Source: a virus. From it: a stretch of DNA of 64,000 bases. The stretch's first letter is position 1. Every line of letters begins with the position of its first letter. The translations under genes and the position numbers were made by a program. The stretch covers positions 2,082 to 66,081 of the IMG/VR virus record IMGVR_UViG_3300045988_047309; one strand, 5' to 3'. Shown piece by piece: positions 26,821 to 63,711 of the stretch. A model generated the notes under the pieces. That model saw only the letters and a list, made by a program, of their open reading frames with translations. It was not told the origin of the DNA and did not search any database.

Positions 26821-26844
26821 ATACGTATATTATTAATATATAAG

Positions 26845-26852
26845 CAAAGATA
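26845..26852 (-). promoter_or_regulatory. Bacteroidota -7 promoter box (TATCTTTG on minus strand)
   Basis: The + strand reads CAAAGATA. Lies 25 nt upstream of the ATG at 26820 and overlaps one arm of the 28-nt hairpin. Confidence 0.45.
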
Positions 26853-26875
26853 GGCAGAATTCAATCTACCTATCT
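26848..26875. repeat. 28-nt hairpin element, copy 2 (AGATAGGCAGAATTCAATCTACCTATCT)
   Basis: 25/28 identical to 21857-21884. AGATAGG/CCTATCT stem. Confidence 0.85.
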
Positions 26876-26892
26876 CTTATCCGTTAACCTTA

Positions 26893-27198: not shown

Positions 27199-27223
27199 AA
27201 TCGTAATTATTAATTGTTTGAAA

Positions 27224-30236: not shown

Positions 30237-30247
30237 CGTATATGATG

Positions 30248-30255
30248 CAAAGATA
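30248..30255 (-). promoter_or_regulatory. Bacteroidota -7 promoter box (TATCTTTG, minus strand)
   Basis: The + strand reads CAAAGATA, 12 nt upstream of the ATG at 30236. Part of a divergent promoter region. Confidence 0.5.
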
Positions 30256-30338
30256 CAAAAATGTATTGAAATAACCAAATTAATCGGATATGATTAAGTA
30301 TAGTTAACGGATAAGATTAATAATAATCTGAAAAGCGT

Positions 30339-30346
30339 TACTTTTG
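30339..30346 (+). promoter_or_regulatory. Bacteroidota -7 promoter box (TACTTTTG)
   Basis: TAnnTTTG, 32 nt upstream of the ATG at 30378. Confidence 0.5.
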
Positions 30347-30377
30347 GACGTTGATTTATAAATTTATACATATATAT

Positions 30378-31193: not shown

Positions 31194-31245
31194 TGCGATA
31201 AGATAAAAAGACAATTTATATGTTTAATTAATATTCAGAATAACA

Positions 31246-32787
31246 ATGAAGAAAAGTACATTTAATCGGCTGCTTTCCATTTTTCTGATGGTAATGGCGG
31301 TTATTTTTGGAGTGAATGGTCAGGTCGTTATGGCTGAGGCGGTTCTGCCTGATGGCGGTACGACCGAGGGTGGACATGCCGCTGAGGCTGGCGGTGCTAC
31401 TGCTGCCGAAGAAGCTGGCAATGGCGGTGCGGCTCGTCAGGATGACGGTATAGCAACCGAAGGCAAAGGTCGTGAACACTTCAATGAGAACGGCACGGAG
31501 TTCTACGAGAACGACATCAACGACAAGATTACGAAGATTCGTCCGATGGCCACTCCTGTTGACCAGATTTCACGTTATGCGACAACCAAGTCAGCCAGTT
31601 CGTTCGTAGTAGAATACTGGAGTATCGGTACACGTCCTATCAAGACCACCGTGAAGGAAACAACCGTAGAGAGTACAGGCACCTCTATGGTGTTGAAGGT
31701 TGAGGACCCAGAAATGTTTACACTGGATGATACCATCCGAGTGGTAGGTGTGAAGGCAATTACCAACTACAAGAACCAGGCTTACGCAGACCTTACCGAT
31801 GAGCCAACTCCAGATTTGGAACTCTGTGTGTGCGGTAAGGATAATGAGGGTTATCCTATCGTGTATGCAGTAAATGGTAAGTTGGTTAATAAGCAGCCTA
31901 TTGGTATTCCTGCACTACAGAAGGGACAGAAGCTCATCCGTATGGCGAAGAGTTGCGGTGAGTTGGACGTACAGACAGGTCGTTTCAACAACCTTCCTGC
32001 TTCTGAGATTCAGTACTGCCAGAACTTCATGATTCAGATTGAAGAGAGTACCTTCAATAAGATTGCCGCTAAGCGAGTGGATTGGGACTTCTCAGACATC
32101 GAGGAAGACAGCATCTATGACATGCGTCTTGCGATGGAGGGCACTTATCTCTTTGGCGATATGGGCTGTATCAAACATACCACCAAGAACAACTCAGCCC
32201 AGTGGTTTACCAAGGGTATCTGGTGGATGGCTGGCAAGGACATCGAGGTAGGCCATGTTGCTACAGCCGATGACATGAAGAAGGGCTACAACAAGAATGA
32301 GCGAGTGATTACCGACTTGGAGTTGGTTGACATTTCCAAGGACTTGTTTGTGGGTACAGGTATCGGCAACAAGCGCAAGGTGATTATCGCAGGTTCAGGC
32401 TTCGTGAGCGCATTCAGTAAGATTGATTCTGACAAGTTCCGTCTGAAAGACACCGTAGAGGTTTGGGACCTGAAGTTCAAGAGTTGGGAGACCGACTTCG
32501 GTGAGGTGCTGATGATTCACTCAGAGCTGTTCGACCTCTTTGATATGAGCGACTGCGGCTTTGCCATTGACCCAGAGTTCCTGGTTAAGCGAGTACACCT
32601 GTCTTGGACTCGTAACGTACTCGACCTGAAGAAGGCTGGCATCCGTAACACCGATGCAGTAGTCATCCAGGAGGTTGCCTGTCTCTACTTGAAGTACCCT
32701 AAGGCACACGCTCGTATGCGCCTTGCTGCCGTGTCTGCCGCAGAAGGTACATCTGACACTGGTGAGAACAAGGACACCAATGTCTAA
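31246..32787 (+). CDS. major capsid protein (start uncertain: 31246 or 31330)
   Basis: 513 aa, after the scaffold gene and before a strong terminator. ...IRPMATPVDQISRY...VVEYWSIG... is typical of Bacteroidota-phage HK97-fold coat proteins. The N-terminal 25 aa are hydrophobic. Confidence 0.7.
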   Translation: MKKSTFNRLLSIFLMVMAVIFGVNGQVVMAEAVLPDGGTTEGGHAAEAGGATAAEEAGNGGAARQDDGIATEGKGREHFNENGTEFYENDINDKITKIRPMATPVDQISRYATTKSASSFVVEYWSIGTRPIKTTVKETTVESTGTSMVLKVEDPEMFTLDDTIRVVGVKAITNYKNQAYADLTDEPTPDLELCVCGKDNEGYPIVYAVNGKLVNKQPIGIPALQKGQKLIRMAKSCGELDVQTGRFNNLPASEIQYCQNFMIQIEESTFNKIAAKRVDWDFSDIEEDSIYDMRLAMEGTYLFGDMGCIKHTTKNNSAQWFTKGIWWMAGKDIEVGHVATADDMKKGYNKNERVITDLELVDISKDLFVGTGIGNKRKVIIAGSGFVSAFSKIDSDKFRLKDTVEVWDLKFKSWETDFGEVLMIHSELFDLFDMSDCGFAIDPEFLVKRVHLSWTRNVLDLKKAGIRNTDAVVIQEVACLYLKYPKAHARMRLAAVSAAEGTSDTGENKDTNV

Positions 32788-32823
32788 AAGCAAGTAGATT
32801 TACAGATAGTCATTAAATAGTGA

Positions 32824-32855
32824 GGGGTGTGGGCACTTGCCCCATCCCTTTTTTT
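32824..32855 (+). terminator. rho-independent terminator after capsid gene
   Basis: GC-rich imperfect hairpin GGGGTGTGGGC/GCCCCATCCC followed by T7. Confidence 0.75.
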
Positions 32856-32883
32856 AGTAACACATATATAATAAGATATAATC

Positions 32884-33291
32884 ATGTTTAAGAAATATCA
32901 AGCAGGTACAGATTTAGCATTTAGTGTCATGGTAGGCGATGAGAGAATGCGTATTATTTTCGAGGGCAAGACCATGGGCTGTAGTGTCTATATGACAAGA
33001 GACCCAAAGGTACAGAAGGCCATTGAGTCCCACTATTGGTACAAAGACAAATTCTTCTTGGTAGAGAGTGTTGACGAGAAGAAGGAAGCCGCAGAGGCCA
33101 AGAAGAAGGCCGATGCCAAGGCCAAGAAGAAAATGGCTGACGAGAAGAAGACTCACGTAGTGACAGACGTTGAGGATGCCAAGGACTATTTAGCTGAGAC
33201 CTTTGGAGTGAGCCGTTCAAAGATGAAGACCAAGGAAGACATCTTGGCCATCGCCAAGGAAAAGGGTGTTGAATTAGAAGGACTGGAGTAA
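32884..33291 (+). CDS. hypothetical head-associated protein with Lys/Ala linker and C-terminal Rho-N/HeH-like helix pair
   Basis: 135 aa. Contains KKEAAEAKKKADAKAKKKMADEKK, then SKMKTKEDILAIAKEKGVELEG. Confidence 0.5.
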   Translation: MFKKYQAGTDLAFSVMVGDERMRIIFEGKTMGCSVYMTRDPKVQKAIESHYWYKDKFFLVESVDEKKEAAEAKKKADAKAKKKMADEKKTHVVTDVEDAKDYLAETFGVSRSKMKTKEDILAIAKEKGVELEGLE

Positions 33292-33947
33292 TGAGAACGT
33301 ATGCTGTATCTGAACTGGTGAAAGAAGTAAAGGTACTCCTTGACAGGAACCAGGAGTCCGCTGGACTGCTGACTCCTGGCGATACCGATACGCTATCACA
33401 GGGCGAGTTGATTCAGAGTAAGATAGTAGATGCAGCAAGAATCATATTGATGGATGCTCCTGCCTTCATGCTGGACGGAAAGGACTACAATGGGCTGAAT
33501 ACATCTTGGGCAGAATCAGATGGTGCTTATGTAGGAACCACCCATCTACCTTCCGACATGATCAGACTCCTTAACGTGAAGGCCAGTGACTGGAACCGCT
33601 CGGCAGAGATCATCACAGAGGAGGATGATGCCTACAAGGTACAGTGTAGCCGATTCGGAGTAAGAGGAAACCCAGAGCGACCTGTCGCTGCACTCATCCA
33701 TAGAAGTGGCGAGCGACTCTTGGAGCTATTCACAAGCAAGAGCAATACCGCCACCGTGTCGCTCACCTATGTCGGTATGCCTTCTATCAGTGAAGGCAAT
33801 ATCGATTTGCCCGAAACATTGAAGGACTCCATCATATATATGGCTGGCTATCTTACTTGCATCAGTCTTGGCGATACCGACACCGCAAGCGGATTTCTCG
33901 GAGTGGCCAGAAAACTGGCGCATATTGTTGAACCTACGACATCATAA
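33291..33947 (+). CDS. hypothetical head-completion/connector-type protein
   Basis: 218 aa. TAATG overlap with the previous gene. Lies between the capsid and portal genes. Confidence 0.45.
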   Translation: MRTYAVSELVKEVKVLLDRNQESAGLLTPGDTDTLSQGELIQSKIVDAARIILMDAPAFMLDGKDYNGLNTSWAESDGAYVGTTHLPSDMIRLLNVKASDWNRSAEIITEEDDAYKVQCSRFGVRGNPERPVAALIHRSGERLLELFTSKSNTATVSLTYVGMPSISEGNIDLPETLKDSIIYMAGYLTCISLGDTDTASGFLGVARKLAHIVEPTTS

Positions 33948-33950
33948 ATT

Positions 33951-35987
33951 ATGGCAAAGAAGAAAGAAGAAACCAAACTGCTATCATTGAGCAGGGTGCT
34001 TGACAAGGAAGAACTGGATAGCGTGAAAGCATCCAAGAGCCGATTTGACAAGCCATACGAGCGTGCCTTCTCTATCTTGCTGGAGGCCCAACGATACTAC
34101 AACAACATGGATAACTTCCGAAAGCGAAGACTGAGAAACAAGCGATACTGCTATGGAGACCAGTGGGGCGATACCATTACGTTTAAAAACAAGTGTGGCT
34201 TCAAAAAACGTATCAAGGAGGAAGACTATATCCGTGAGCAGGGCAGTGAGCCGTTGAAGAGTAACCTTATCAGAAGATTGGTGAAAAACGTGCTGGGAGT
34301 ATATCGCTCACAGAGCAAGGAGCCAACCTGTAACGCAAGAGATAAGGACGAGAAGCGATATGGCGAGACCATGAGCGTGGTGCTGCAATGCAACCGACAA
34401 CTGAACAGAGAGTCGGAGCTGGATGCCCGAACCATGGAAGAGTTCCTGATAAGCGGTGCCGCTATCTATAAGAAAAAATACGGATGGCGAAGAGGCAGGT
34501 TGGATTGCTGGACGGACTACGTGAACCCAAACAATTTCTTCATAGACAACAATATGAGGGATTTCCGTGGATGGGACGTAAGCTGTTTGGGCGAGGTACA
34601 CGACATCACCATCGGCAATGTGCTGAGAGAGTTTGCCAAGTCTCCTGCTGAGGCTCGTAAGTTGAAGGAGATATATCGGTTGGCGGCTAACCGTGATTTC
34701 GTGATTGCAGACTGCACCCAGCGATTCGGAGAGTTCGACCCCAAGACCATCGACTTTATGAATCCTGCCAACCCATCTCTTTGTCGAGTGATTGAGGTGT
34801 GGCGCAAGGAAAGCAAGCCCAGATACCGATGCCACGACTACAACAATGGCGATGATTTCAAGATAGACATTGAAGACAAGGCCGACATTGTAGATGCCGA
34901 GAATAGAGATAGATTACGTAGAGGTCTGGCCGCTGGCATGCAGGAGGAGGATATTCCTCTGATTGATGACGAGTGGTTTATGGACGATTACTGGCATTTC
35001 TACTACCTTTCCCCATTCGGTGATATACTGAGAGAGGGTGAGACCCCTTATGCACACGGCGAGCATCCTTACTGCTTTAAGTTCTATCCATTCATTGACG
35101 GAGAGATTCACAGCTTCGTGGAAGATGTGATTGACCAGCAGAGATACGTGAACCGACTTATCACGATGTACGACTTCATTATGAGGGCGAGTGCAAAGGG
35201 TGTGCTGCTCTGTCCTGATGACTGCCTCCCTGATGATATGAGTTGGGATGATTTCTGCGATGAGTGGAGTAGATTTAACGGAGTAGTGAGGTACAAGCCC
35301 AACACAAGCGGTCAGGTTCCTCAGCAAGTGGCGAACAACTCTACGAACATAGGCATCGGTGATTTGCTCAGTTATCAGTTGAAGTTCTTTGAGGATATAT
35401 CAGGAGTGACAGGAGCGTTGCAAGGAAAGCAAGGAGCATCGGGAACGAGCGGTTCGCTCTATGCCCAGCAGACACAGAACGCCACCATGTCGCTGCTTGA
35501 TATTTTGGAGAGTTTCAGTCAGTTTGTCATTGACGGTGCGTACAAGACAGTGAAGAACATGCAGCAGTACTATGACGTGGCCCGCAATTTCAATATCGTT
35601 GGCAGGGCAGGGCAGATAGTGCGCTACGATCCTAAGAAGATACGAGACGTGGAGTTTGACATCAATATCACGGAAAGCACGGCTACACCCGTATATAGAC
35701 AGATGGCCAACGAGTTCCTTATGACCTTGTGGCAGAATCAGGCTATCACGTTGGAGCAGTTGTTGCAAGTAGGAGACTTCCCATTTGGCGAGGAGCTGTT
35801 GCAATCGGTAGCATCCAACCAGCAAGCCATTCAGAATGGCGAGACCCCACAAGGATTCTCTCCTCAGTTGCAAGCACAAGTGGCTCAGGCATCACAGAGC
35901 AATCCGAAGGCCCAGGCGATGCTACAGCAGATGATGAGTGGTCAGGGAGTGAGTCCTGACGGACAGACCCCACCGCTTGCAGCTTAA
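33951..35987 (+). CDS. portal protein
   Basis: 678 aa. ...AQRYYNNMDNFRKRRLRNKRYCYGDQWGD... (portal Y.GdQW signature), with a Q-rich C-terminal tail. Confidence 0.75.
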   Translation: MAKKKEETKLLSLSRVLDKEELDSVKASKSRFDKPYERAFSILLEAQRYYNNMDNFRKRRLRNKRYCYGDQWGDTITFKNKCGFKKRIKEEDYIREQGSEPLKSNLIRRLVKNVLGVYRSQSKEPTCNARDKDEKRYGETMSVVLQCNRQLNRESELDARTMEEFLISGAAIYKKKYGWRRGRLDCWTDYVNPNNFFIDNNMRDFRGWDVSCLGEVHDITIGNVLREFAKSPAEARKLKEIYRLAANRDFVIADCTQRFGEFDPKTIDFMNPANPSLCRVIEVWRKESKPRYRCHDYNNGDDFKIDIEDKADIVDAENRDRLRRGLAAGMQEEDIPLIDDEWFMDDYWHFYYLSPFGDILREGETPYAHGEHPYCFKFYPFIDGEIHSFVEDVIDQQRYVNRLITMYDFIMRASAKGVLLCPDDCLPDDMSWDDFCDEWSRFNGVVRYKPNTSGQVPQQVANNSTNIGIGDLLSYQLKFFEDISGVTGALQGKQGASGTSGSLYAQQTQNATMSLLDILESFSQFVIDGAYKTVKNMQQYYDVARNFNIVGRAGQIVRYDPKKIRDVEFDINITESTATPVYRQMANEFLMTLWQNQAITLEQLLQVGDFPFGEELLQSVASNQQAIQNGETPQGFSPQLQAQVAQASQSNPKAQAMLQQMMSGQGVSPDGQTPPLAA

Positions 35988-36015
35988 TTCAGTTATTCAT
36001 TAAATAGATAATAGT

Positions 36016-36237
36016 ATGATAGCAGACAAACCAAGCGACAATGAGTGGTATGGCAACGGAAACCCCGATACCAGCCAAGGCAGCAACCCCAATAACGGAA
36101 TAGCTACGGAGACCCAAGGCAGGGAAGCTAAGCCCGAACTTTACGAGAATGATGTATTCGGCAAGGTGTCGAAACGTAAGAAGAACGACATCTGGGCGAG
36201 GGGCAAAGAGAAACGAACCAGATTTAAGGACGAATAA
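36016..36237 (+). CDS. 73-aa protein combining a capsid-N-terminus-like motif and a scaffold-C-terminus-like motif
   Basis: NNGIATETQGREAKPELYENDVFGKVSK vs capsid DDGIATEGKGREHFNENGTEFYENDINDKITK. NDIWARGKEKRTRF vs scaffold GNIWQRGHEKRTRI. Confidence 0.6.
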   Translation: MIADKPSDNEWYGNGNPDTSQGSNPNNGIATETQGREAKPELYENDVFGKVSKRKKNDIWARGKEKRTRFKDE

Positions 36238-36332
36238 AGAAAGGAGGTGTTTTTATCGTAACTGTATTTGTCTGACACTCAGATAGCTACAGAGATATTT
36301 ATGAGTTTATGGTGCTGTGTTAAAGATATTCC

Positions 36333-36340
36333 TATCTTTG
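36333..36340 (+). promoter_or_regulatory. Bacteroidota -7 promoter box (TATCTTTG)
   Basis: 31 nt upstream of the ATG at 36371. Confidence 0.5.
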
Positions 36341-36370
36341 CAGCATCATAAACTTTTAAATTTAACAGGT

Positions 36371-36856
36371 ATGAATTTCGTAGAGTTTGTCGAAAAGTAT
36401 CAACAGGATATGACTCCTGAACAGATGTTGAGTATAGCCAAGGCTATCGGTAAGTATCTCTCGTGCAAGTTGAGCGATGCAGAGGTGCATCATCTATGTG
36501 CGATGGTGCATGGCGTATTGAGTGAAGAACATTTTGACAAGTACTTTGCCGATGATGCTATCAGTAAGATGTGGTATGAGGATGCAGACGGAACCAGGCA
36601 CACGGCACCTTTCTTTACGGACGAAGAGATAAAGGAGGTCTTCGATGAACACAAGGATGACATATCAGACTATACCATCCATGACTTGGCAGTAACCATG
36701 AATTTGCTGAGGAGCGACCATCATGTTCTGCTGGAGCGGTACAGTGAGGATGCAGAGGAGTTGAAAGAAATGGTGGTGTTGATGGCAATAGAATACCTCC
36801 AAGACCCTGACTGTCTGTACCCAACGAGCAAGATATGGCACAACATTAACGGATAA
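36371..36856 (+). CDS. hypothetical protein, paralogue of 21045..21473
   Basis: Starts MNFVEF after the promoter box. Shares the motif pattern of ORF 21045. Confidence 0.6.
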   Translation: MNFVEFVEKYQQDMTPEQMLSIAKAIGKYLSCKLSDAEVHHLCAMVHGVLSEEHFDKYFADDAISKMWYEDADGTRHTAPFFTDEEIKEVFDEHKDDISDYTIHDLAVTMNLLRSDHHVLLERYSEDAEELKEMVVLMAIEYLQDPDCLYPTSKIWHNING

Positions 36857-36880
36857 GATGATGAATTGGAAGACATAACT

Positions 36881-36888
36881 TATCTTTG
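36881..36888 (+). promoter_or_regulatory. Bacteroidota -7 promoter box (TATCTTTG) of lysis cassette
   Basis: 32 nt upstream of the holin ATG at 36920. Confidence 0.5.
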
Positions 36889-36919
36889 CGTATTATTAAT
36901 ATTTTATAAAAGATAAGTT

Positions 36920-37183
36920 ATGACTCCAAATGTACGTGAAGGATTGCAATATGGTGCAGCTATAGGAATGCTTTTGAGCGGTGTTGTGCTCACCTTCCTA
37001 TCGTTCTTTCTCAACAATTATGTAGTGTCGGAAGGCGTGCTGTGGTACGTCAGCCAGACACTGGTTTACTCAGGAGCGATATTCGGAGTAAACGTTTATT
37101 TCAAGACCAAGTTGGGCAACTTTGAGAGCAAAGTAAAAGGAGAACTTGCAAGTATGATAAAACAAGTGAAGGAGGGTAAGTAA
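36920..37183 (+). CDS. holin (two TM helices)
   Basis: 87 aa with two hydrophobic helices and a charged C-terminus. TAATG overlap with the endolysin gene. Confidence 0.65.
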   Translation: MTPNVREGLQYGAAIGMLLSGVVLTFLSFFLNNYVVSEGVLWYVSQTLVYSGAIFGVNVYFKTKLGNFESKVKGELASMIKQVKEGK

Positions 37184-37731
37184 TGAAGGTAACAAGAGAA
37201 CAGGTTTTGGCTATCATGCCGAATGCAAAGGACAGGGTGGATGCTTTTCTTCCCTATATCAATGGTTATGCAGAGGTTTTTCATATTGATACTGCCCAGC
37301 GAATGGCCCACTTCCTGGCTCAGATAGCACATGAGAGTGGCGAACTGAGATACACCAAGGAACTCGGCAACAAAAACTACTTTCACAAGTATGATGTCGG
37401 GAAGTTGAAGAACATGCTCGGGAACCTGAAAGATGGAGACGGTTACAAGTATCGTGGTAGAGGATTGATTCAGATCACAGGCAGAGCCAACTATCAGGCT
37501 TTTCAGAACAGCAAGTATTGCTCTGACGATATTATGGAAAACCCCAAGCTGTTAGAGCTTCCCCTATTGGCAACCAAGAGTGCGATGTGGTGGTGGTGGA
37601 AACACGGTCTGAACAAACTGGCTGACAGTGATTGTATTGTGGCTATCACCAAGACTATCAATGGAGGGACCAACGGATTGGAATCAAGACGAAAGTTCCT
37701 TGCAAGAGCAAAGAAAGTTTTCAAAGTTTAG
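37183..37731 (+). CDS. endolysin, glycoside hydrolase family 19 (chitinase-like lysozyme)
   Basis: FLAQIAHESGELRY...YRGRGLIQITGRANY...TINGGTNGLESRR are classic GH19 phage lysin motifs. Confidence 0.85.
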   Translation: MKVTREQVLAIMPNAKDRVDAFLPYINGYAEVFHIDTAQRMAHFLAQIAHESGELRYTKELGNKNYFHKYDVGKLKNMLGNLKDGDGYKYRGRGLIQITGRANYQAFQNSKYCSDDIMENPKLLELPLLATKSAMWWWWKHGLNKLADSDCIVAITKTINGGTNGLESRRKFLARAKKVFKV

Positions 37732-37734
37732 CCT

Positions 37735-38193
37735 ATGAAGACAAAGTGGTATGATTGGCAAGTAGCACCCTGCGTGATAAGCCTCTTGTTGGCGGTGTTT
37801 CTTCTGTCGGGATGCAAAACGAAGTACATTCCGATAGAAAAAGTTGTATATCAGAATGCGATAAAGCACGATACGCTGCATACTTCTGACAGCGTTTTCG
37901 TGCGTGATTCTGTATATCTCAGGCAAAAGGGAGATACGTGTTATCTTGACCGATGGCATGAGAAAACCGTCTTTAAGAATGTGTATATAGTAAAGGTGGA
38001 TTCCTTCATGAAAAGAGATTCCATCCCAGTGCCCTATCCAGTAGAAAAGCAACTCTCCAAATGGGAGCAGATTCAGTTGAAGTATGCAGTGTGGTCGTTT
38101 GGCGCACTCTGCATGCTGCTTATCATATTAGGTTATAAACTCTATAAAAAGATAAAGAATGGCAGATTTCACATTAACAATCAAGAAAAATGA
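37735..38193 (+). CDS. unimolecular spanin candidate (lipoprotein with C-terminal TM anchor)
   Basis: Lipobox LLSGC at aa 23-27 and a C-terminal TM helix AVWSFGALCMLLIILGY. Immediately after the endolysin gene. Architecture as in T1 gp11. Confidence 0.6.
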   Translation: MKTKWYDWQVAPCVISLLLAVFLLSGCKTKYIPIEKVVYQNAIKHDTLHTSDSVFVRDSVYLRQKGDTCYLDRWHEKTVFKNVYIVKVDSFMKRDSIPVPYPVEKQLSKWEQIQLKYAVWSFGALCMLLIILGYKLYKKIKNGRFHINNQEK

Positions 38194-38617
38194 CATCTAT
38201 GAAGAGGTGGAGAAGACCACTGCCTACATAGGTAAGAAGGCAACCGTAGAGGATGGCAAATCGGCTTTTGATCAGATATTCGTAACGGAAGCAGACTTGG
38301 CAATGATAGAGCGGTTCTTCAACGAGTCGTTGGATGCGCTAAGAAATGTTCTGAAACGATTTATCTCAGGAGGCTCAGGAGTAGACGGGACCATCAACTG
38401 GGAACTTGAGATGCCCAGCAGATTCGATGGCAACCTACTCGATTCCATCAATTCGTCAGCCAACTCGTTCTTGGTAAACAGTATTATCGGGAAATGGTGC
38501 GAGATAGTCGCAAACGAAAAGGCAAAAGAGTATGCGGATAACGCTGCTGCATTATTGCTCGACATCAAGGATAAAGCGTTCTACAAAAAGAAACCGGCAC
38601 GAACAAAAATATCATAG
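38159..38617 (+). CDS. tandem paralogue 1 (possible gp6-like head-tail adaptor family)
   Basis: 152 aa. Shares DIYEEVEKTTAYIGKK and ...SSANSFLVNSIIGKWCEIV blocks with the next two ORFs. Confidence 0.55.
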   Translation: MADFTLTIKKNDIYEEVEKTTAYIGKKATVEDGKSAFDQIFVTEADLAMIERFFNESLDALRNVLKRFISGGSGVDGTINWELEMPSRFDGNLLDSINSSANSFLVNSIIGKWCEIVANEKAKEYADNAAALLLDIKDKAFYKKKPARTKIS

Positions 38618-38618
38618 T

Positions 38619-39122
38619 ATGGCAAGAAAGAGTTTAACGATTACGTTGTATATGAGTGAACTCATTTACGACTTTCAGAATAAGGCGTTCCTTACAGGAC
38701 GCAGTAGAAGAGCTGCCAGTATGGATGCAGAGGCGGCAAGTAATATCCAGGCGAGCGATGATGACGAAGACAAGAATCAGGCATTGCGTAGCATTCAGAA
38801 TGCGTACAGTCAACTGCTTGTGGAGTTGAGTGAGTCAGTTCAAACAGACACAGGTACCACTGCGTCTAACGAGTTGATAAGTGGCGATACCAATATCACC
38901 ATCAACCTCTCCCTTCCATCAAACTATCCACTCGCCTTGAAGGATGCGCTTACCAGTTCCATCCATGACTACATTATCAACAAAGCCTTGATGGACTGGT
39001 TTATCATTACCAATCCTAACGAGTCGAAGACTTATTCAGAACTGTCGATAGCTGCTATCAAGAATCTGCATGAGACCTTTAACAGACGTGAGAGACCCAG
39101 CAGGACAGCTCCCAACGAATAA
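38619..39122 (+). CDS. tandem paralogue 2
   Basis: Starts MARKSL, 1 nt after the previous stop. Blocks LIYDFQNKAFLTGRS, DDDEDKNQALRSIQNAY and SSIHDYIINKALMDWFIIT. Confidence 0.6.
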   Translation: MARKSLTITLYMSELIYDFQNKAFLTGRSRRAASMDAEAASNIQASDDDEDKNQALRSIQNAYSQLLVELSESVQTDTGTTASNELISGDTNITINLSLPSNYPLALKDALTSSIHDYIINKALMDWFIITNPNESKTYSELSIAAIKNLHETFNRRERPSRTAPNE

Positions 39123-43522: not shown

Positions 43523-43714
43523 CTATTCTATAGCGCAAGACACGATGCAATCTTCTGTGTTGATGCCACGATAGTATTCACATCGCTGGCAAGCAAGGCT
43601 GCCAACCATCAGGACCTCATTGGTGTATCTGCCATGCATACCGAATGGGCATGGAGTGGTGTACTCGAAGTGGCCACCTACAAATTCGTTGAGATTATAT
43701 TTTGGATATTTCAT
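43523..43714 (-). CDS. small Cys-rich protein (possible zinc-binding)
   Basis: 63 aa with C22, C42-x2-C45 and C56-x3-C60. ATGA overlap with the upstream ThyX-like gene. Confidence 0.5.
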   Translation of the reverse strand: MKYPKYNLNEFVGGHFEYTTPCPFGMHGRYTNEVLMVGSLACQRCEYYRGINTEDCIVSCAIE

Positions 43715-44271
43715 TTGGTTGTTTTGTCTATATACACTAATCTATGGTATTTAAATGTCCCAGCCAAGCTAAAGCCGCACGATTTTGGCTCAGGGCAGAA
43801 TCCTCTGTAAACGCATTGAGGAACACAAGCGGATGCAAGATAAGGCTCTATTTGAGCCAACTCGTCAATCACCTTATACCATATCTCTCTTGTTTCCTTG
43901 GATGCCTTATTGCATAGTCTCAGCTTCGAGATATTGATAATCTCCTGAGCGTTGAGAGATAGCTGCAAGTTGACCAAATCATCCTGCCGCATATCGTGGC
44001 GAGATACCTTGGAACCAGTAATATCTGGTCTTGATGTAGAAACGAATGGTTGGGCATGAACGTGGCGTACAAAGTGATTGCTCACCCAGTATGGTATGCC
44101 ATACATCTTAATATCAAACTCCAATTCTCTGAGCGGTGAATGCTCGCTGAGAATCATTTGTTTCTTGAACTCATCGCTTGGCTCATGTCCTAACGATTTC
44201 TTGCCTTGCGTGAACCGAGCAGCATCAACGACACGCTGCCAGTCGGTTACTTTTGTGATTTCTATTTTCAT
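43711..44271 (-). CDS. ThyX-fold (FAD-dependent thymidylate synthase family) protein with degenerate active-site motif
   Basis: SEHSPLRELEFDIKMYGIPYWVSNHFVRHVHAQPFVSTSR parallels ThyX [40 protein letters not shown]. The RHR motif is RHV here. Confidence 0.55.
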   Translation of the reverse strand: MKIEITKVTDWQRVVDAARFTQGKKSLGHEPSDEFKKQMILSEHSPLRELEFDIKMYGIPYWVSNHFVRHVHAQPFVSTSRPDITGSKVSRHDMRQDDLVNLQLSLNAQEIINISKLRLCNKASKETREIWYKVIDELAQIEPYLASACVPQCVYRGFCPEPKSCGFSLAGTFKYHRLVYIDKTTK

Positions 44272-52066: not shown

Positions 52067-52209
52067 TATATTTCCTTGATGATTAAAACTCCACCTTTCG
52101 GATAATGAGCCGTGTCAATGAAGTTCATTACACTTGCCTTACCGATACTGGCGGTGACTGCAACTGAGCATCCGTCAGCCGTTTTTGGTATCACTATCTT
52201 CGGGGGGGG
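52066..52209 (-). other. TRD-like module A, open only in the -1 frame behind the G8/C8 tract
   Basis: PPPKIVIPKTADGCSVAVTASIGKASVMNFIDTAHYPKGGVLIIKEI*. No ATG of its own. The frame has a stop codon 18 nt upstream of the tract. Confidence 0.4.
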
Positions 52210-52937
52210 TAGAGTTTTTGGATTGCTTCATTGATGTCTGCTTTGGAGAGATACTTTTCAAGAAGGGGTTGGGACATGAAATATTCTTGAGATACATTGT
52301 CTTCAAGTATGTCCTCAACCTTTGTGGTGAGTGGTATCGGTGAAGGAAAATGATACTCAGGGTTCGGGTCCTCGTCTGTTCTTAGAATGGAAAAGACAAA
52401 TATTCGCTCTCTGTTCTGAGGAATACCGTAGTCCTTTGCGTTCAAGACCTTATAGAATGACGCATAACCAAAACTCTCCAAATCTTTGAGATATTTGAAA
52501 AAGAAGGGCAGCATTTTCTTGGTGAGCAGTCCTTTGACATTCTCCAACATCACATACTTGGGGTGCTTTGCTTCTATCATACGTCTTTCCTGAAAGATAA
52601 GTGACGATCGTGTTCCGCTGCCTTCCTCTGCGCCTTTCCGCAGTCCTGCCATTGAGAAATCCTGACAGGGTGAAGACCAACTGATGAAATCGAAGTCAGG
52701 AACCTCGTTCCAGTCTATCCTCGTCACATCACCGAAGTTAGGAGCTTCCCATCCGTGAAGCAGCCGATAAGCCTGAATAGCAGATGGCTCTATCTCGGAT
52801 ATGCCCACCACCTTGAAGTCGAAATCAGGGTGTTTTTCTTTCAGATACTTAAACGAAAGAGACTGACTGCCATATCCTGCGAAAGCCTCGAAGACTCTTA
52901 ATGGGTTTTGCTGGTTGTAGTTGCTTGTTGCTATCAT
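52194..52937 (-). CDS. C5-cytosine methyltransferase N-terminal catalytic piece (motifs I-VIII)
   Basis: FEAFAGYGS (I), SWSSPCQDFS (IV), VMLENVKGL (VI), GIPQNRERIFVFS (VIII). Ends ...KLYPPRR* right after the C8 run. Confidence 0.85.
   Translation of the reverse strand: MIATSNYNQQNPLRVFEAFAGYGSQSLSFKYLKEKHPDFDFKVVGISEIEPSAIQAYRLLHGWEAPNFGDVTRIDWNEVPDFDFISWSSPCQDFSMAGLRKGAEEGSGTRSSLIFQERRMIEAKHPKYVMLENVKGLLTKKMLPFFFKYLKDLESFGYASFYKVLNAKDYGIPQNRERIFVFSILRTDEDPNPEYHFPSPIPLTTKVEDILEDNVSQEYFMSQPLLEKYLSKADINEAIQKLYPPRR
52202..52209. repeat. G8 (C8 on coding strand) homopolymer inside the methyltransferase gene
   Basis: Read directly: cggggggggt at 52201-52210. Confidence 0.95.
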
Positions 52938-55509: not shown

Positions 55510-56427
55510 TTAATTAAGTTTGATTCTGATTGACGGTTTGGTTTCTACCTCCTTGAGATAATGCTCGTAGTGGTCTGGCTCTGTATCCTTGAAAAGTTTA
55601 GTGTCGAAAGTTTTCTTGGTGGTAGCTTCCACGTAAGAGTATGTACCGATATTGGTCTTGATAGACTTCTGCTTATTCCCTTCCATCAAGCACATCAGCT
55701 GCTCCTTGATAGAATCCTGACGAAGTTTCAGTGCATCTATTCGTGCCGTGAGAAGTCTGTACTCCTGCTCCAAGGCTGAGAACTGCTCGGGTACTTCCAC
55801 CTTGTAATGATAGTCTGCATCGTCTGTGAGATAAGCGTAGATTAAGTTCGTTATTGTCTCATCAGATACTCTTGGCAGTGGCTGGAACCTGCTCTTGCCA
55901 TCCTTGAACCACATGCAGACAATCTCCTTCACCTTTAGGTTGGGATTCATCTGCTCGAACCATTTGGCATAGATGGATAACTGGAGAGAAACGTTGTTAT
56001 AGTGCAGGGTGGAGGTGGTCTTGTAGTCAACAAGGTAGATATTTCCTTCGTTGTCAGCGAACACACCATCTATGGCCGATGCAAAATACTTGTTATCTGT
56101 GACAAGATACTCGCTATCCACATGATGCAGTCCGTAAGCATGCAGCATATCGCTGAAGTCACGTATCTCCTGTGTCGGATTCGGATATGCGCTTATGTCC
56201 GAATCAAAGATGGTACAGAATAGCTCAAAGGAGTTGTGAATCATTCCACCACGTTCGGCAGCCTTAGCCAACACACTGTCTGGTATGTCCTTATATGTAT
56301 CAGGAAAGGCAAACTTGATGAGCGTTCCAGTGATACCTGATAGCTGTTTCTTTCCAAGATGGTAGGTGTGGTTGATCTCATCGAACACCACCTTGCTTTT
56401 CTTTAGCTTTATTTCCTTTGTTTTCAT
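55510..56427 (-). CDS. PD-(D/E)xK recombination exonuclease (RecB/YqaJ-like)
   Basis: AIDGVF...IYLVDYKTT...QLSIYA (D, D/E-x-K and Q...Y motifs). ATGA-coupled to the ERF gene. Confidence 0.65.
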   Translation of the reverse strand: MKTKEIKLKKSKVVFDEINHTYHLGKKQLSGITGTLIKFAFPDTYKDIPDSVLAKAAERGGMIHNSFELFCTIFDSDISAYPNPTQEIRDFSDMLHAYGLHHVDSEYLVTDNKYFASAIDGVFADNEGNIYLVDYKTTSTLHYNNVSLQLSIYAKWFEQMNPNLKVKEIVCMWFKDGKSRFQPLPRVSDETITNLIYAYLTDDADYHYKVEVPEQFSALEQEYRLLTARIDALKLRQDSIKEQLMCLMEGNKQKSIKTNIGTYSYVEATTKKTFDTKLFKDTEPDHYEHYLKEVETKPSIRIKLN

Positions 56428-57032
56428 ATTCCTAATTCCTTTCTCTTAGCAGATAGCGTCTGCATGAATTGTGCGTTGCTCATCAACGGCTTGTAGGTCT
56501 GCATTACCCATACAAGGTTGTCCTTGTTCACGCAGCGTGATACCATCTGTATCGCCTCGTTGATGTCGTTAGGGTGATACTGAGGGTCTGAGGTTGCTGG
56601 TACGTTATTGCTGCTTTTTACTTTTTGCTGGCTTTGCTGGTCTTTCTGGTTTTCAATATTAGTTGTATCGGAATCTGCATTGTCATCAATAGCAAAAAGA
56701 CCATTCAGTGCATACTTTCGTGCATAAGAAGATGCAGCCCCAGTAATCTGGCTCCCATCCATTCCCTTCTTGGTTTCTTCCTCTCTTGCATAACCTGTCG
56801 TTATTTCTATTTCGCCTTTGCTGTTTTTGAGAGTAGCGGTTGCCTTTACATATATGCGATTGCCAACCATTTCTATATCGTCTGTCATAACCAGTGTGCA
56901 ACCAAGATTGGACATTATCGGCTTAACCGCTTCTAATATATCCTCAACCTTGCGGTACTTGTAGTTGCCAAAAGCATTGAATTGAGATTTCGGTGCTTTA
57001 AGCGTTGACTGAATTGTTATAAGTTCTTTCAT
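56424..57032 (-). CDS. erf: ERF-family single-strand annealing protein
   Basis: FGNYKYRKVEDILEAVKPIMSNLG...GSQITGAASSYARKYALNGLFAID is typical of ERF. Confidence 0.8.
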   Translation of the reverse strand: MKELITIQSTLKAPKSQFNAFGNYKYRKVEDILEAVKPIMSNLGCTLVMTDDIEMVGNRIYVKATATLKNSKGEIEITTGYAREEETKKGMDGSQITGAASSYARKYALNGLFAIDDNADSDTTNIENQKDQQSQQKVKSSNNVPATSDPQYHPNDINEAIQMVSRCVNKDNLVWVMQTYKPLMSNAQFMQTLSAKRKELGI

Positions 57033-57043
57033 ACCTTATTATA

Positions 57044-57385
57044 TTAGTTAGTTACACAGATGTCGCAGTCACACGTCCATCCATTGCACTCCTTGATGAG
57101 CTTCTTGATTCGCTTGTTGTTTGGGTCTGATTCCAACTCACCTTGCAGTCTTTTTTTCAACTCTTTGATGAGGTCTAAAGGTGTCATGTAGTCTTCAATG
57201 AGGTCTTGCTTGATGCCTTCCTCATCATCGGAAGAAGAGGTAACCGTAAACGACTTGTCGAGCGTGAATGATGCCGTAACATCGTAGTCCTGATACTCAG
57301 GATATTCAGGCTGATTGTAAGGTGCGAATGGGTCGTTTGCTGCGCCTGGTGGATAATTTCCACTTGTTGAATTGTTCATAAGCAT
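57044..57385 (-). CDS. hypothetical acidic protein with C-terminal Cys cluster
   Basis: 113 aa, ending ...KECNGWTCDCDICVTN. Confidence 0.5.
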   Translation of the reverse strand: MLMNNSTSGNYPPGAANDPFAPYNQPEYPEYQDYDVTASFTLDKSFTVTSSSDDEEGIKQDLIEDYMTPLDLIKELKKRLQGELESDPNNKRIKKLIKECNGWTCDCDICVTN

Positions 57386-57518: not shown

Positions 57519-57563
57519 AAAAAGGGAGCATGTTCCCAGGCTTTTAATTCCATTCATGCTCCC
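57519..57563 (-). terminator. rho-independent terminator closing the tRNA/ncRNA transcript
   Basis: Minus strand: GGGAGCAUG-(22 nt)-CAUGCUCCC followed by U5. Confidence 0.65.
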
Positions 57564-57917
57564 AAAGACACAAGTCGGGCCACGCTTTCGCCTAAGGACA
57601 TGTGTCTTTAAGTTCCCTTCTGCATTCCATTGGAGGCTTAGGACTCCCAGTGCTATGTTTCGTACTGGCTGCATTAGAACTTTATTGTAGTTGTGCGCTC
57701 CTGCCATTGTGCTACCTCTTACAAGGGTCTCGGCATCAGGCCTGCTTCTTCACAAGTGAACTCCAAGACGTTCCCAATTCCACCTGTTGCGGTGTAGGTA
57801 ATAGTCCTGCCACTTCCTCGTCTAATCGTATGTTGTGGTTGCATACGCTGCTTTTGACTACGAGTACCTCTCAAGGAAGGTTTATCCTATCCGAAACAAT
57901 GCCTCGGTATCGGGCTT
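57519..57917 (-). ncRNA. candidate ~400-nt structured non-coding RNA immediately 3' of the tRNA
   Basis: No credible ORF. GC-enriched relative to its flanks. Several helices are visible (AAAGACACA/UGUGUCUUU 9 bp, CGUAUG/CAUACG, CACC/GGUG, GCGAAAGC GNRA hairpin), and it ends in a terminator. Confidence 0.4.
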
Positions 57918-57996
57918 TGGGACGCAAGGTGGGACTCGAACCCACGACCTCGAAGGATAGGGAACCTTCTGTTCTACCAACTGAACTACTTGCGTC
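57918..57996 (-). tRNA. tRNA gene with 8-nt anticodon loop (UUCCCUAU); anticodon ambiguous (CCU/CCC/quadruplet CCCU)
   Basis: Hand-folded cloverleaf: acceptor ACGCAAG/CUUGCGU, U8 A9, D arm GUUC-AGUUGGUA-GAAC, anticodon stem GAAGG/CCUUC, T arm GUGGG-UUCGAGU-CCCAC, C73, encoded CCA. G at -1 can pair with C73. Confidence 0.7.
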
Positions 57997-58237
57997 AAAG
58001 AACAACTACAAAACAATACAGGATATTGTGGTGGGTGGAAGTAGTGAGCTTCAAAAAACCTCCACGGATATGACTGATTAATAACGAACTTGATATATTC
58101 CTATGAACTTTTGAGGTTCACCCACCTTGTTGTTACTTACCCCATTCTTTGAAGGAGCTGTATATCTCGTTGATCAATACGCAAAGCGTTGCGATTGATA
58201 ATATTAACATGATTGTCGAAAACATATTCTAATTTTA

Positions 58238-58552
58238 TTAATGTGTTGAACAATAGGCTGCTGCCTCTGATTCTATCTCTGTCATGCTCTTGGAGCGGTT
58301 CTGCATCATCCAGTCCTCTAACTCGCTCTTCTTGAAGTAGAGTCGATTGACGTTCGGCTTGTAGCAAGGTAGGATATGATTTCTTACGTTCATTCTGACT
58401 CCTTCTACAGTCATGCCGAGTATAAATGCAGCTTCCTTGATGTTGAGCATTGACTTAGCTGCTATCATCGAATACTGCTCGATGCGGTCTAACTGCTCTT
58501 TAATCTGTGGGTCTATCATATCAGTTGAATTTGATGGTTTACTGACAGGCAC
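58238..58552 (-). CDS. excisionase-family HTH DNA-binding protein
   Basis: LNIKEAAFILGMTVEGVRMNVRNHILPCYKPNVNRLYFKKSELEDWM fits the HTH_17/Xis-like pattern. Confidence 0.55.
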   Translation of the reverse strand: MPVSKPSNSTDMIDPQIKEQLDRIEQYSMIAAKSMLNIKEAAFILGMTVEGVRMNVRNHILPCYKPNVNRLYFKKSELEDWMMQNRSKSMTEIESEAAAYCSTH

Positions 58553-59381
58553 CAGTTGTCTTTGACGACTCTGTTCTACCAGTGCCCTTAACTCTGGGAG
58601 TGCATTCCTGCTCTATTAAGGGGAGAATGCCCTTCGCTTTGAGTGCATCATAAAGGAAGATTCTTCCCTTGGTCGTACACTCGGTGTTATACTTCACATC
58701 ATGTCTTCCGTCTGAACGGATGATGTCAACTGCTCTGCTATGAACGTAGCCGCCAGTAAGGAACTGTCCGTACAATATCCACTGACCTCGAACCTTATGC
58801 TGGATTCTCATAGATTCCAACTCTTTGTTCATTCTCACCGCACTCATTCCGTAGTCCTGCGCTATCTGAGTGATGGTCATGGTGGCATTGCTTTGCAGGA
58901 TTTGGTCGTAGTAGCTTACCTTAGGAAGCATTTCTGTAATCTTGTTCCCAAGTTCCATGTTCTCCTTGCTGATAGTGAGGATGGTTGCTTGCTGCTGCTT
59001 GTTCTCCAAGGCTAACTGCTGCTTCTCTTCTTCTGCCTTGACCAGAGATTTGAGAGCTTCGAGATAGTTTTGAGGGACGGATGGCTTTTGATGTTGCTCC
59101 TCCAGTTCCTTCCATCGTTTAATCAACTTGGCTCTCGCTTCATCGTTGAACTTGGTGGCGATGTAGAGACACTCTTCCTTGTTGAGGGAGTAGCAAGGTC
59201 TATCTTGATTGTTTTCATCTTTGTAAGACCCGAGGGAAAATTTGCCCTCGGCTACTTTTTCCCAAGCTGGCTCCATCTTTCGGATGGATTTCATCACATC
59301 AGCATGACGCTTGCCAGTAATCTCTGCAATCTGTAGTGATGTCATTCGCTCACCATCTACAATAGTTGAAATTTCATTCAT
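58539..59381 (-). CDS. Rha-family regulator fused to KilAC/antirepressor-type C-terminal domain
   Basis: N-terminus: MTSLQIAEITGKRHADVMKSIRKM...CYSLNKEECLYIATKFNDEARAKLIKRW (Phage_pRha pattern). C-terminus: ITQIAQDYGMSAVRMNKEL.... Confidence 0.7.
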   Translation of the reverse strand: MNEISTIVDGERMTSLQIAEITGKRHADVMKSIRKMEPAWEKVAEGKFSLGSYKDENNQDRPCYSLNKEECLYIATKFNDEARAKLIKRWKELEEQHQKPSVPQNYLEALKSLVKAEEEKQQLALENKQQQATILTISKENMELGNKITEMLPKVSYYDQILQSNATMTITQIAQDYGMSAVRMNKELESMRIQHKVRGQWILYGQFLTGGYVHSRAVDIIRSDGRHDVKYNTECTTKGRIFLYDALKAKGILPLIEQECTPRVKGTGRTESSKTTGACQ

Positions 59382-62547: not shown

Positions 62548-63711
62548 TTACTTATCGAAGAACTTATCAATGAGTCCTACGGCTTCATCCTTCTTCTTGT
62601 CTATAATCTTAGCGTATATCTCGGTGGTGGCGATGTCTGTATGACCCAGTAGCTTGCTTGTCGTGTAGATGTCGGCTCCCAGTGTAAGCATCATTGTTGC
62701 AAAGGTGTGTCTGGCGCAATGGAAGGTGATCTTCTTCTTAATTCCAGCAGCTTCCACCCAGTCTTTAATCGTATAACATAGGCAGGAGTGCTGAACCAAT
62801 CCCCTGAATATCACATCATCCTCTCCCTTCTCAGGTAGCCACTTTATGGCTTCCTTAGAGAGTTGGTAGGTGATATTCTTCTTGGTCTTTGTCATTCTGA
62901 TTGTAAGTCTATACTTTTCCTCTCCATCTTCTGTATATGTCTCAATCTGAGACCATCTAAGTTTTCTTATGTCGGAGATTCTAAGGCCACAGAAACATGA
63001 GAACATGAAGGCATTCTTAACCAGAGGATATTTGCATTCCGTCTCAGCCAACAGTTTTACTTCGTCAATGCTTAAAAATTCCCTTTCGCTTTCAATAGCT
63101 TTAGGTAAATCATCTCTGGAAATATCCTGAGCAGGGTTATGCTTGATGATACCTTCTTCCACTGCAACCTTCAAGACCTTACATAGGTACTTGTAGTATG
63201 CAATGCAGGAATTAATATGAAGGTGTTCCTGACTCTGTCTTCTCATTCTATAGTCCCTGAGGTACTGCATAAATCCTTTGCAGTAGTTCTTGTCTATATC
63301 CTTCATCAGCACTTGGTCACCCTTATAGAGTAGGAGGTGCTTTTTCAGGATTTTTAGGATTCTGTTCGGGTCGCTGTCTGACGTTGATGTCTTCGCCTTC
63401 TTCTCAGCAAAGATGTCGATCACGTCAAAGAGTTTCATCTTGCTTTTGCTGGTTTCAAGTCCTGCCAGTCCGTTCTTGATGTCGAGCACACGCTGCGCCT
63501 TGATAACATTCGCTACTGCCATAGTCTCTGCATTCTTTCTTCTCGCCTCAGTTCTGTCTCTTCCCTTTTCGGGCACAAGATATAGTTTGAGGAACTCATA
63601 CTTACGCTTTCCATCTTGGTAAATATCAAGATAGATGCTCTGGTTTCCGTTTGCCAGTTCCTTGAATCTGATAGTGACTGGCTCTTTTTCGATTGTTTTC
63701 TTCCTTCCCAT
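62548..63711 (-). CDS. int: tyrosine recombinase / phage integrase (Bacteroidota type)
   Basis: N-terminal arm-binding pattern ITIRFKELANGNQSIYLDIY. Catalytic residues: GLRISDIRKLRW (R), HCARHTFAT (H..R), LLGHTDIATTEIYAKI (H, Y). Confidence 0.9.
   Translation of the reverse strand: MGRKKTIEKEPVTIRFKELANGNQSIYLDIYQDGKRKYEFLKLYLVPEKGRDRTEARRKNAETMAVANVIKAQRVLDIKNGLAGLETSKSKMKLFDVIDIFAEKKAKTSTSDSDPNRILKILKKHLLLYKGDQVLMKDIDKNYCKGFMQYLRDYRMRRQSQEHLHINSCIAYYKYLCKVLKVAVEEGIIKHNPAQDISRDDLPKAIESEREFLSIDEVKLLAETECKYPLVKNAFMFSCFCGLRISDIRKLRWSQIETYTEDGEEKYRLTIRMTKTKKNITYQLSKEAIKWLPEKGEDDVIFRGLVQHSCLCYTIKDWVEAAGIKKKITFHCARHTFATMMLTLGADIYTTSKLLGHTDIATTEIYAKIIDKKKDEAVGLIDKFFDK

Follow-up and report, generated by a model that had tools for sequence, protein, structure and literature searches.

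An expanded, hypervariable anticodon loop in a tRNA-shaped gene, a putative processing domain of a larger RNA in Segatella copri phages

Our analysis of a 64,000-nucleotide (nt) stretch of viral DNA (positions 2,082 to 66,081 of IMG/VR record IMGVR_UViG_3300045988_047309; hereafter the window) concerned a gene shaped like a transfer RNA (tRNA) at 57918..57995 on the minus strand, with eight nucleotides in its anticodon loop. A preliminary description, which gave no strand, had likened it to the tRNAs that suppress +1 frameshifts. Instead, with a probability of about one half, the gene would be a processing domain in the shape of a tRNA, with no part in decoding and with a loop that evolves fast, forming the 5′ head of a larger phage RNA. 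Its anatomy, its conservation, its linkage to a second RNA, the hypervariability of its loop and the dispensability of its anticodon arm are observed across related phages; processing by ribonuclease (RNase) P and a twister ribozyme, and the absence of decoding, are suggested by these same sequences.

Structure of the tRNA-shaped gene

ARAGORN recovered a single tRNA from the 64-kb window, at 57918-57995 (-), and reported it as tRNA-??? with the four-base anticodon ccct. The Rfam tRNA model RF00005 aligned to 57921-57995 with 53 bits (E 1.5e-8; gathering score 29), an alignment that accommodated the anticodon loop only with one extra base and the variable region only with two, and no alternative fold with a 7-nt loop was found by this covariance model. 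The minimum free energy (MFE) structure from RNAfold was the cloverleaf (-28.4 kcal/mol, z = -3.58), and none of 200 shuffled sequences was equally stable. The preliminary description of the cloverleaf, based on U8, A14, G18G19, the T-loop UUCGAGU and an encoded CCA, was confirmed by these programs and by the sequence itself, in which these elements and C73 can all be read, as were the 8-nt loop within the stem GAAGG/CCUUC and the over-long variable region.

On the minus strand, the gene consists of an acceptor stem (57995-57989 / 57928-57922), a D arm (57986-57971), an anticodon arm (57969-57952), a 6-nt variable region GAGGUC (57951-57946), a T arm (57945-57929), C73 (57921) and the CCA (57920-57918). 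Within the anticodon arm, the stem GAAGG/CCUUC (57969-57965 / 57956-57952) encloses the loop UUCCCUAU (57957..57964), delimited alike by ARAGORN, RNAfold and comparison with homologues. The stems, the conserved bases and an RF00005 score above the gathering score are those of a canonical elongator tRNA; the loop departs from the canonical seven nucleotides, although U33 is present. The proposed pairing of C73 with the G at -1 (57996, minus strand) was recovered by RNAfold, which counts it in an 8-bp acceptor helix, but G-1 is not found throughout the family, as the acceptor type GCGCAAG carries A-1.

A family of tRNA-shaped genes with expanded loops

Related loci were sought in viral and metagenome collections with two exact-word scans that avoided the anticodon arm, one covering the 5′ acceptor and D arm and the other the T arm and 3′ acceptor. 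These yielded 42 loci, with an 8-nt loop in every complete copy. With the neighbouring Rha/Ant-like protein as query, 80 loci were found, and in 76 of them ARAGORN placed a tRNA downstream of the Ant-like gene, at a distance of about 550-650 nt. Most of the 76 had four-base 'anticodons' (cccc, ctcc, cttc, cacc, tctc, tatg, catg, ccat, tcat or caat), and the remaining tRNAs were called as CAU with 7-nt loops. After removal of duplicates, the family comprised 103 contigs with 45 unique sequences and 19 loop alleles at one syntenic locus, the loop being 8 nt long in 85 contigs (the window and 84 others) and 7 nt long in 18. The sample of loop alleles comes mostly from one large IMG/VR data set (3300045988). 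In 80 contigs, mostly from that same data set, the large terminase TerL is 97-99% identical.

All members are built on a common scaffold, with the anticodon stem GAAGG/CCUUC and the T arm GUGGGUUCGAGUCCCAC; 116 of 117 instances have C73, and 98 of the 117 encode the CCA. Three acceptor types occur: ACGCAAG, which is the window's, and GCAUAGG are preceded by G-1, and GCGCAAG by A-1. Among the 45 unique homologues, compensatory double changes affect four pairs of the acceptor stem (1, 3, 4, 6) and two each of the D stem (1, 2) and the T stem (3, 4), and U33 is invariant. Because of these compensatory changes and the invariant U33, the gene is taken as a structured RNA that is under purifying selection and not in decay, contrary to the earlier suggestion of a degenerate gene. 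Phages with the ACGCAAG and GCGCAAG scaffolds form two sublineages, separated at about 370 of the 11,641 sites compared across the structural region (26800-39000 compared with L206-L285).

The length of the loop was reproduced in independent data. Two separately assembled metagenomes (ERZ28644600 / SAMN05827077 and ERZ28649208 / SAMN10275349) match the window at 100% identity for 5.6 kb, loop included. The commonest allele of the family, UUCCCCAU (38 contigs), lies one base away from the window's UUCCCUAU; the base specific to the window is the U at 57959, where its relatives have C. Six other contigs with an identical Erf protein, as well as phage L205, which shares about 98% identity with the window across 1.2 kb aligned around the tRNA, carry UUCCCCAU, and the U at 57959 is therefore a recent single-base change from C, with the 8-nt length older. 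Judged from these comparisons, the 8-nt loop is real and inherited, and no sequence error.

Linkage to a structured RNA and a candidate twister ribozyme

Directly 3′ of the tRNA-shaped gene lies a conserved structured non-coding RNA of about 242 nt (57676..57917, minus strand), delimited by conservation and RNAalifold. Across 83 representatives its column identity was 0.85-0.94, and the 310 nt past the tRNA were as conserved as the tRNA. These 310 nt showed no 3-base periodicity and held stops in all frames, and a protein-coding origin of the conservation was rejected on these grounds; RNAalifold identified many compensatory pairs in the RNA. Of 138 loci, 136 had both the tRNA and the downstream RNA, offset by 0-4 nt, such that the tRNA-like module is joined to a conserved and apparently functional RNA. 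No Rfam family matched the 242-nt body.

The RNA is followed by a candidate type-P1 twister ribozyme (57612..57680, minus strand), recognized from its full-length match to RF03160 (44.2 bits, E 2.4e-8; gathering score 67.2) and from its conserved core and pseudoknot. The twister core is invariant across the 83 representatives; in most of them one hairpin is lengthened by an insertion of 40-80 nt. Covariation is seen in P1 and also in the pseudoknot, where CCU:AGG is replaced by CAC:GUG. Cleavage is predicted between 57676 and 57675 and would free the 242-nt RNA behind the tRNA. Further downstream, a hairpin formed by GGGAGCAUG...CAUGCUCCC and followed by UUUUU (57519..57563, minus strand) was read from the sequence and is missed by a simple terminator scan, its loop being longer than 8 nt; it is probably the terminator of the tRNA, non-coding RNA and twister unit. 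A RAGATH-21 match at 57567-57606 was weak and non-significant (16.5 bits).

On the opposite strand, a 159-aa open reading frame (ORF; 57602-58081, plus strand) overlaps the tRNA and the conserved RNA, and public pipelines call genes of 83-143 aa over this locus (L205, L434-L441). Such opposite-strand calls are probably spurious, since the RNA is conserved and codon periodicity is absent. Some of these public annotations also lack the real HTH_17 gene at 58238-58552 (-).

Hypervariability of the loop and replacement of the anticodon arm

In 31 contigs sharing one haplotype of the downstream RNA, nucleotide diversity was 0.30 in the anticodon loop, compared to 0.034 in the remaining tRNA, 0.009 in the downstream non-coding RNA and 0.056 in the upstream intergenic region. 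Diversity in the loop was thus about 5-30 times that of the flanking non-coding DNA, and seven distinct loops occurred on a single downstream-RNA haplotype. In a 5-kb alignment of 45 loci, the group with UAUG loops (19 loci) and the group with CUUC loops (8 loci) differed consistently at five positions, all of them in the loop. In the structural region at 26.8-39 kb, compared between 12 UAUG and 5 CUUC genomes, only two of 2,117 polymorphic sites were associated with the allele, both weakly and both at third codon positions. Over the 16.6 kb compared, within 2.5 kb on either side of the gene and at 26.8-39 kb, no site co-varying with the loop allele was found. These association tests covered about 40% of the genome, the parts at 0-26.8 kb and 39-55 kb having been left out as too mosaic or with too few typed contigs, and no co-varying partner of the loop was encoded in the testable parts. 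The pattern points to diversifying or balancing selection on the loop, or to a mutational hot spot. A template or primer-binding site of the kind used by diversity-generating retroelements was rejected, as the window contains neither a second copy of the anticodon arm nor a complement of the tRNA 3′ end.

In some relatives the anticodon arm has been replaced altogether. Contigs L175 (about 1345-1413), L189 (about 3204-3272) and L195 (about 3339-3406) have an intact acceptor, D arm, T arm, C73-CCA and downstream RNA, with the anticodon arm replaced by a 4-bp stem and an AAUG tetraloop. Between L175 and L189 this mini-stem shows a compensatory change from A-U to G-C, which suggests that the mini-arm form is itself maintained. 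Contig L174 (upstream of 5248) is reduced to about the acceptor and T arm, with the same downstream RNA kept. The common UUUAUGAG allele also adopts, in its MFE fold, a 7-bp stem with a UAUG tetraloop. Taken across these homologues, the anticodon arm is dispensable, and the acceptor/T-arm core is retained.

Tests of decoding and frameshifting

Searches of both strands of the 64-kb window for AGGG or GGGG preceded by an upstream ORF and followed by a +1 continuation gave a sole match, antisense to real genes, and hence no credible +1 junction at either quadruplet. Over the 80 loci, +1 junctions at a phage's own quadruplet were not enriched (1.38 per locus, against 1.51 for the quadruplets of other loci). 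The window genes (18,328 codons) hold 33 in-frame AGG-G (24.9 expected) and 15 GGG-G (21.3 expected), with no avoidance of these cognate quadruplets. Two apparent frame breaks between neighbouring minus-strand ORFs, at 25846-25883 and 29781-29832 (-), turned out to be ordinary overlaps or close start/stop junctions and not frameshift sites. A programmed +1 frameshift was rejected on the strength of these results; they leave no positive evidence for a target, although low-level frameshifting may still occur.

Decoding as such left no clearer trace. Across the 19 alleles no register yields one amino acid, and the putative anticodon is followed by a purine in five of 19 alleles in one register and in nine of 19 in the other. 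Position 37 is almost always a purine in real tRNAs, a rule that, like those on glycyl- and arginyl-tRNA synthetase (GlyRS, ArgRS) considered below, is E. coli-centred. Neither the anticodon nor the isotype is conserved among orthologues, which include the 19 alleles and three contigs with a tetraloop mini-arm, and BLAST against phage and E. coli genomes gave generic tRNA matches without affinity to any isotype. An origin from tRNA-His, suggested by a resemblance, was dropped in view of these generic matches and the lack of G-1 on one scaffold type. Complements of a phage's own loop were not enriched nearby (0.56 versus 1.0 per 10 kb). An antisense or immunity RNA of the C4 type was rejected on this result, together with the lack of allele-associated sites (within 2.5 kb on either side and at 26.8-39 kb) and of any Rfam match to the C4 family.

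Phage, host and genomic context

Prophages of Segatella copri HDE04 and of an uncultured Prevotella genome encode portal proteins 93-95% identical to that of the window, and PHROG and Pfam matches identified an integrase (62548-63711), CI-like and Cro-like regulators, NinB, portal and large terminase, consistent with a temperate phage of Segatella/Prevotella copri. The tRNA lies in a leftward early operon, with regulators on one side and recombination genes on the other. Upstream in this operon are an HTH_17/Xis-like gene (58238-58552, minus strand) and a Rha/Ant-like gene (58539-59381, minus strand), both identified by PHROG/Pfam. Downstream, also on the minus strand, are an ORF of 113 aa (57044-57385), Erf (56424-57032; Pfam ERF 7e-40) and a RecE-like exonuclease (55510-56427; PHROG exonuclease). 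The early region further contains a second C5 cytosine DNA methylase (52194-52937, minus strand) and a partial ThyX-like (Thy1) match (43711-44271, minus strand). Among the ORFs scanned there were no tRNA-related enzymes (Ro60, RtcB, ligase, CCA-adding enzyme or synthetase).

Other tRNA genes occur in several phage contigs. Some relatives have a canonical tRNA-Cys(GCA) at their integrase end, separated by about 5.5-7 kb from the odd tRNA; it is located in L127 (638-709), L144 (639-710), L147 (638-709) and L157 (258-329), and is probably the host attachment site of the prophage. The odd tRNA was rejected as attP or integration site, the tRNA-Cys(GCA) near the integrase end being the likelier attachment site. 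Larger contigs of Prevotella-type phages (L296, 369-1055; L327, 458-1138; L336, 374-1057) carry a canonical tRNA-Arg(CCU) and a tRNA-Met(CAU) with an initiator-like 1:72 mismatch, and L339 (156-903) has a cluster of five tRNAs with odd calls, namely Ser(act), Thr(agt) and a 2-base 'anticodon' in a 6-nt loop. In distant isolated relatives (Bacteroides phages BKO1-TP3 and others), no tRNA was present in the 50 kb examined.

A 'polyvalent' protein of 5086 aa is encoded at 1724-16984 (+), with PBECR2, ART-PolyVal (weak), InPase, PBECR1, PBECR5 and C5 DNA methylase domains. The PBECR domains have the RNase fold of Barnase, EndoU, colicin E5/D and RelE (BECR). The domain content of this protein is mosaic among related phages and does not track the loop allele of the tRNA.

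Discussion

The reading we favour places the gene in a single transcription unit of the early operon, in which the tRNA-like domain would be followed by the structured RNA of about 242 nt, the twister and the terminator hairpin. The tRNA shape, with its acceptor/T-arm helix, D/T elbow and C73-CCA, would recruit the tRNA-processing enzymes of the host; RNase P would act at the 5′ end, possibly joined by the 3′-end and CCA machinery, and the cuts by RNase P and twister would carve a defined RNA from the early transcript. The loop is probably a contact surface for some fast-changing partner, since it evolves faster than its neutral flanks. Loops of seven or eight bases, a pyrimidine after the 'anticodon', radical change of the loop and even its exchange for a tetraloop would be tolerated because decoding would not be the selected function. 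Such a domain would account for the eighth base, the irregular position 37, the turnover of alleles, the tetraloop variants, the linkage to the RNA and the lack of a codon-level signal.

Arrangements of this kind have partial precedents. Theta (HDV-like) ribozymes occur in cis downstream of tRNAs in phages of gut Bacteroidota (PMC10879173), at most about 5 nt from the tRNA 3′ end, where they are proposed to trim the trailers of decoding, often suppressor, tRNAs (PMC10879173). The unit described here likewise has a self-cleaving ribozyme in cis downstream of a tRNA, but its ribozyme is a twister candidate located 242 nt away, with a structured RNA in between. Substrates of RNase P that resemble tRNAs serve as regulatory RNAs of phages, as in C4 of P1 and P7 and the CI RNA of P4, and tRNA-like domains are also known from YrlA, a bacterial Y RNA, and from mascRNA; in C4, variable loops on a constant scaffold set the specificity. 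What C4, YrlA and mascRNA would share with the phage unit is a tRNA-like module that is fused to a non-decoding RNA or forms part of it. The phage unit differs from C4 and YrlA in its complete cloverleaf, in the lack of a complementary target near the gene and in the lack of a meaningful Rfam score, the YrlA and mascRNA matches over the tRNA being weak and non-significant; no Ro60/Rsr gene was present among the ORFs scanned.

Several observations weigh against a processing domain. Most members retain a perfect anticodon stem, a loop of 7-8 nt and all bases of the tertiary interactions, together with the invariant U33 and a CCA in 98 of 117 instances, and such likeness to a tRNA exceeds the needs of a processing signal. 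The loop, with a diversity of 0.30, is far more variable than the neighbouring intergenic DNA (0.056) and than the other hairpin loops of that RNA haplotype, which argues that its sequence matters to something and does not merely drift. Processing alone explains neither a loop that outpaces neutral flanks nor the well-kept U33 and stem. In addition, the twister match in the window stays under the Rfam gathering threshold, and cmscan did not detect the ribozyme in L127 and L183, where the hairpin insertion is long; the 40-80-nt insertion would explain both the low scores and these misses.

A broader alternative, which we regard as possible but tentative, is that of a natural family of expanded-anticodon tRNAs within a self-processing RNA made of tRNA, non-coding RNA and twister, whose loop would be a programmable, diversifying specificity element acting either on the ribosome (lineage-specific quadruplet decoding, +1 shifts or codon-specific reprogramming) or as an anti-RNase decoy.

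The decoy by itself seems unlikely, but it is the main companion or rival of the processing domain and compatible with it. The RNA would present an anticodon-like loop to an anticodon-directed RNase, either a host defence nuclease or one of the BECR-fold domains of the phage itself, and thereby block or divert the enzyme; loop alleles would track nuclease specificity in each host strain, and the extra base or odd position 37 would bar translation or cleavage. Such a role would be consistent with a loop that is about 5-30 times more diverse than flanking non-coding DNA and has seven alleles on one RNA haplotype, with the restriction of the UAUG-CUUC differences to five loop positions over 5 kb, and with the invariant U33. 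Real anticodon triplets such as CCC, CAU/UAU, CUU and CCA are embedded in the alleles, the gene sits in the early operon, and the 5086-aa polyvalent protein has three domains (PBECR1, PBECR2 and PBECR5) with an RNase fold of the colicin E5/D type. Published phage tRNAs that evade nucleases reportedly keep a 7-nt loop and the anticodon, with changes in the neighbouring bases. The phage family differs from these in that loop length and the 'anticodon' itself change; what they share is selection on the anticodon loop of a phage-encoded tRNA, with evasion of anticodon nucleases through changes in the loop (PMC10264068). Variants of PBECR5, PBECR1 and PBECR2 did not track the loop allele, PBECR5 being 100% identical in L419 (CUUC) and L421 (UAUG), and co-variation of the loop with the phage's own PBECR domains was accordingly set aside within this small sample. 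The mini-arm variants, moreover, could not be anticodon decoys, yet persist and diversify, and a decoy leaves the fused non-coding RNA and twister unexplained.

Somewhat less likely still is an ordinary triplet decoder in which the odd loop is tolerated, the tRNA being charged and supplementing codons such as GGG, AUA and AAG, with its anticodon switching between lineages. In favour of decoding, the cloverleaf with its CCA and U33 is intact, the window uses GGG least among its Gly codons (64 of 1191), canonical tRNA-Arg(CCU) and tRNA-Met(CAU) occur in other Prevotella phages, and most of the implied anticodons belong to synthetases that read the anticodon. A single C73 scaffold would nevertheless have to serve many amino acids, in an inconsistent register and often without a purine at position 37; phages that are nearly identical differ to the point of unrelated 'anticodons', the anticodon loop is missing from three contigs, and BLAST showed no isotype affinity. 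If the window allele is read as CCU, the A20 required by E. coli ArgRS is missing, the D loop having U at that place. The extra base could be without effect on the frame, as in yeast mitochondrial tRNA-Thr1, and natural tRNAs with 8-nt loops that read triplets are on record (PMC4267643, PMC5009743). Yeast mitochondrial tRNA-Thr1 and Ashbya tRNA-Ala have, like the phage family, natural and conserved 8-nt loops, which are not known to cause frameshifting (PMC4267643, PMC3874161, PMC5009743), but they have a fixed anticodon and a defined codon reassignment, and the phage family has no fixed anticodon.

We consider it doubtful that the gene is a natural +1 frameshift suppressor or quadruplet tRNA, with AGGG as its quadruplet in the window but GGGG in the majority of relatives, and causing a programmed or global +1 shift during infection. 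The likeness to sufD that had suggested such a role is genuine and closer still in relatives with UUCCCCAU, the commonest allele: sufD, the tRNA-Gly(CCC) of Salmonella and E. coli with an extra C, a quadruplet tRNA (qtRNA-Gly) for GGGG, also has a loop of 8 nt with a C run after UU, and an extra base of this type is found in UUCCCUAU of the window and in the 38 contigs with UUCCCCAU. It was, however, obtained by selection in the laboratory, as a mutant of a defined glycine tRNA, and its suppressor phenotype is proven, whereas in the phages the loop is ancestral to the lineage, occurs in 19 alleles on a scaffold with C73 and A1:U72, can be deleted and has no detectable targets, the regions tested having given no cognate site. 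In E. coli, qtRNA-Gly(GGGG) works without being toxic, and GlyRS still charges it (PMC9094753). In the phage gene, C2:G71, G3:C70 and the loop CC match part of the bacterial Gly identity set; C73 and A1:U72 do not. That set consists of U73, G1:C72, C2:G71, G3:C70, C35 and C36. The window holds no credible +1 junction, the 80 loci no enrichment (1.38 versus 1.51), the 33 AGG-G and 15 GGG-G in-frame sites are not avoided, and the two suspicious junctions are ordinary overlaps. The quadruplet also changes without a co-varying site, and relatives with a 7-nt loop, or with a tetraloop and no anticodon loop, exist, so that the earlier proposal of a frameshift-promoting or recoding tRNA was not sustained.

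An assembly or sequencing artefact, or a pseudogene in decay, is very improbable, for although errors are common in homopolymer runs, the same sequence was obtained from two separately assembled samples, 8-nt loops are present in 85 contigs from many assemblies, the stems covary by compensation and diversity in the remaining tRNA is low (0.034).

Natural tRNAs with non-standard anticodon loops are very rare; the standard review lists few, 'tRNAs in a phage' among them, and frameshifting is known for none (PMC5009743), and no description of this family was found in the full-text literature on phage tRNAs with quadruplet or expanded anticodons. We place the family as a variant of phage tRNA genes and tRNA-like processing domains, and not in the frameshift-suppressor class. 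As an annotation caution, calls of 'tRNA-???' or quadruplet anticodons in phages should not be taken as recoding unless comparative evidence supports it. The expanded loop is the norm in about 100 phage genomes of a dominant bacterium of the human gut, where it is hypervariable on a constrained scaffold, and on any of these readings the family is a natural test case for the effect of an 8-nt loop in vivo. The module of tRNA-like head, structured body and putative twister tail, which has no Rfam family, is an apparently undescribed type of phage RNA. If the loop is indeed a specificity element, directed against RNases or acting on the ribosome, it would represent a new kind of interface between phage and host.

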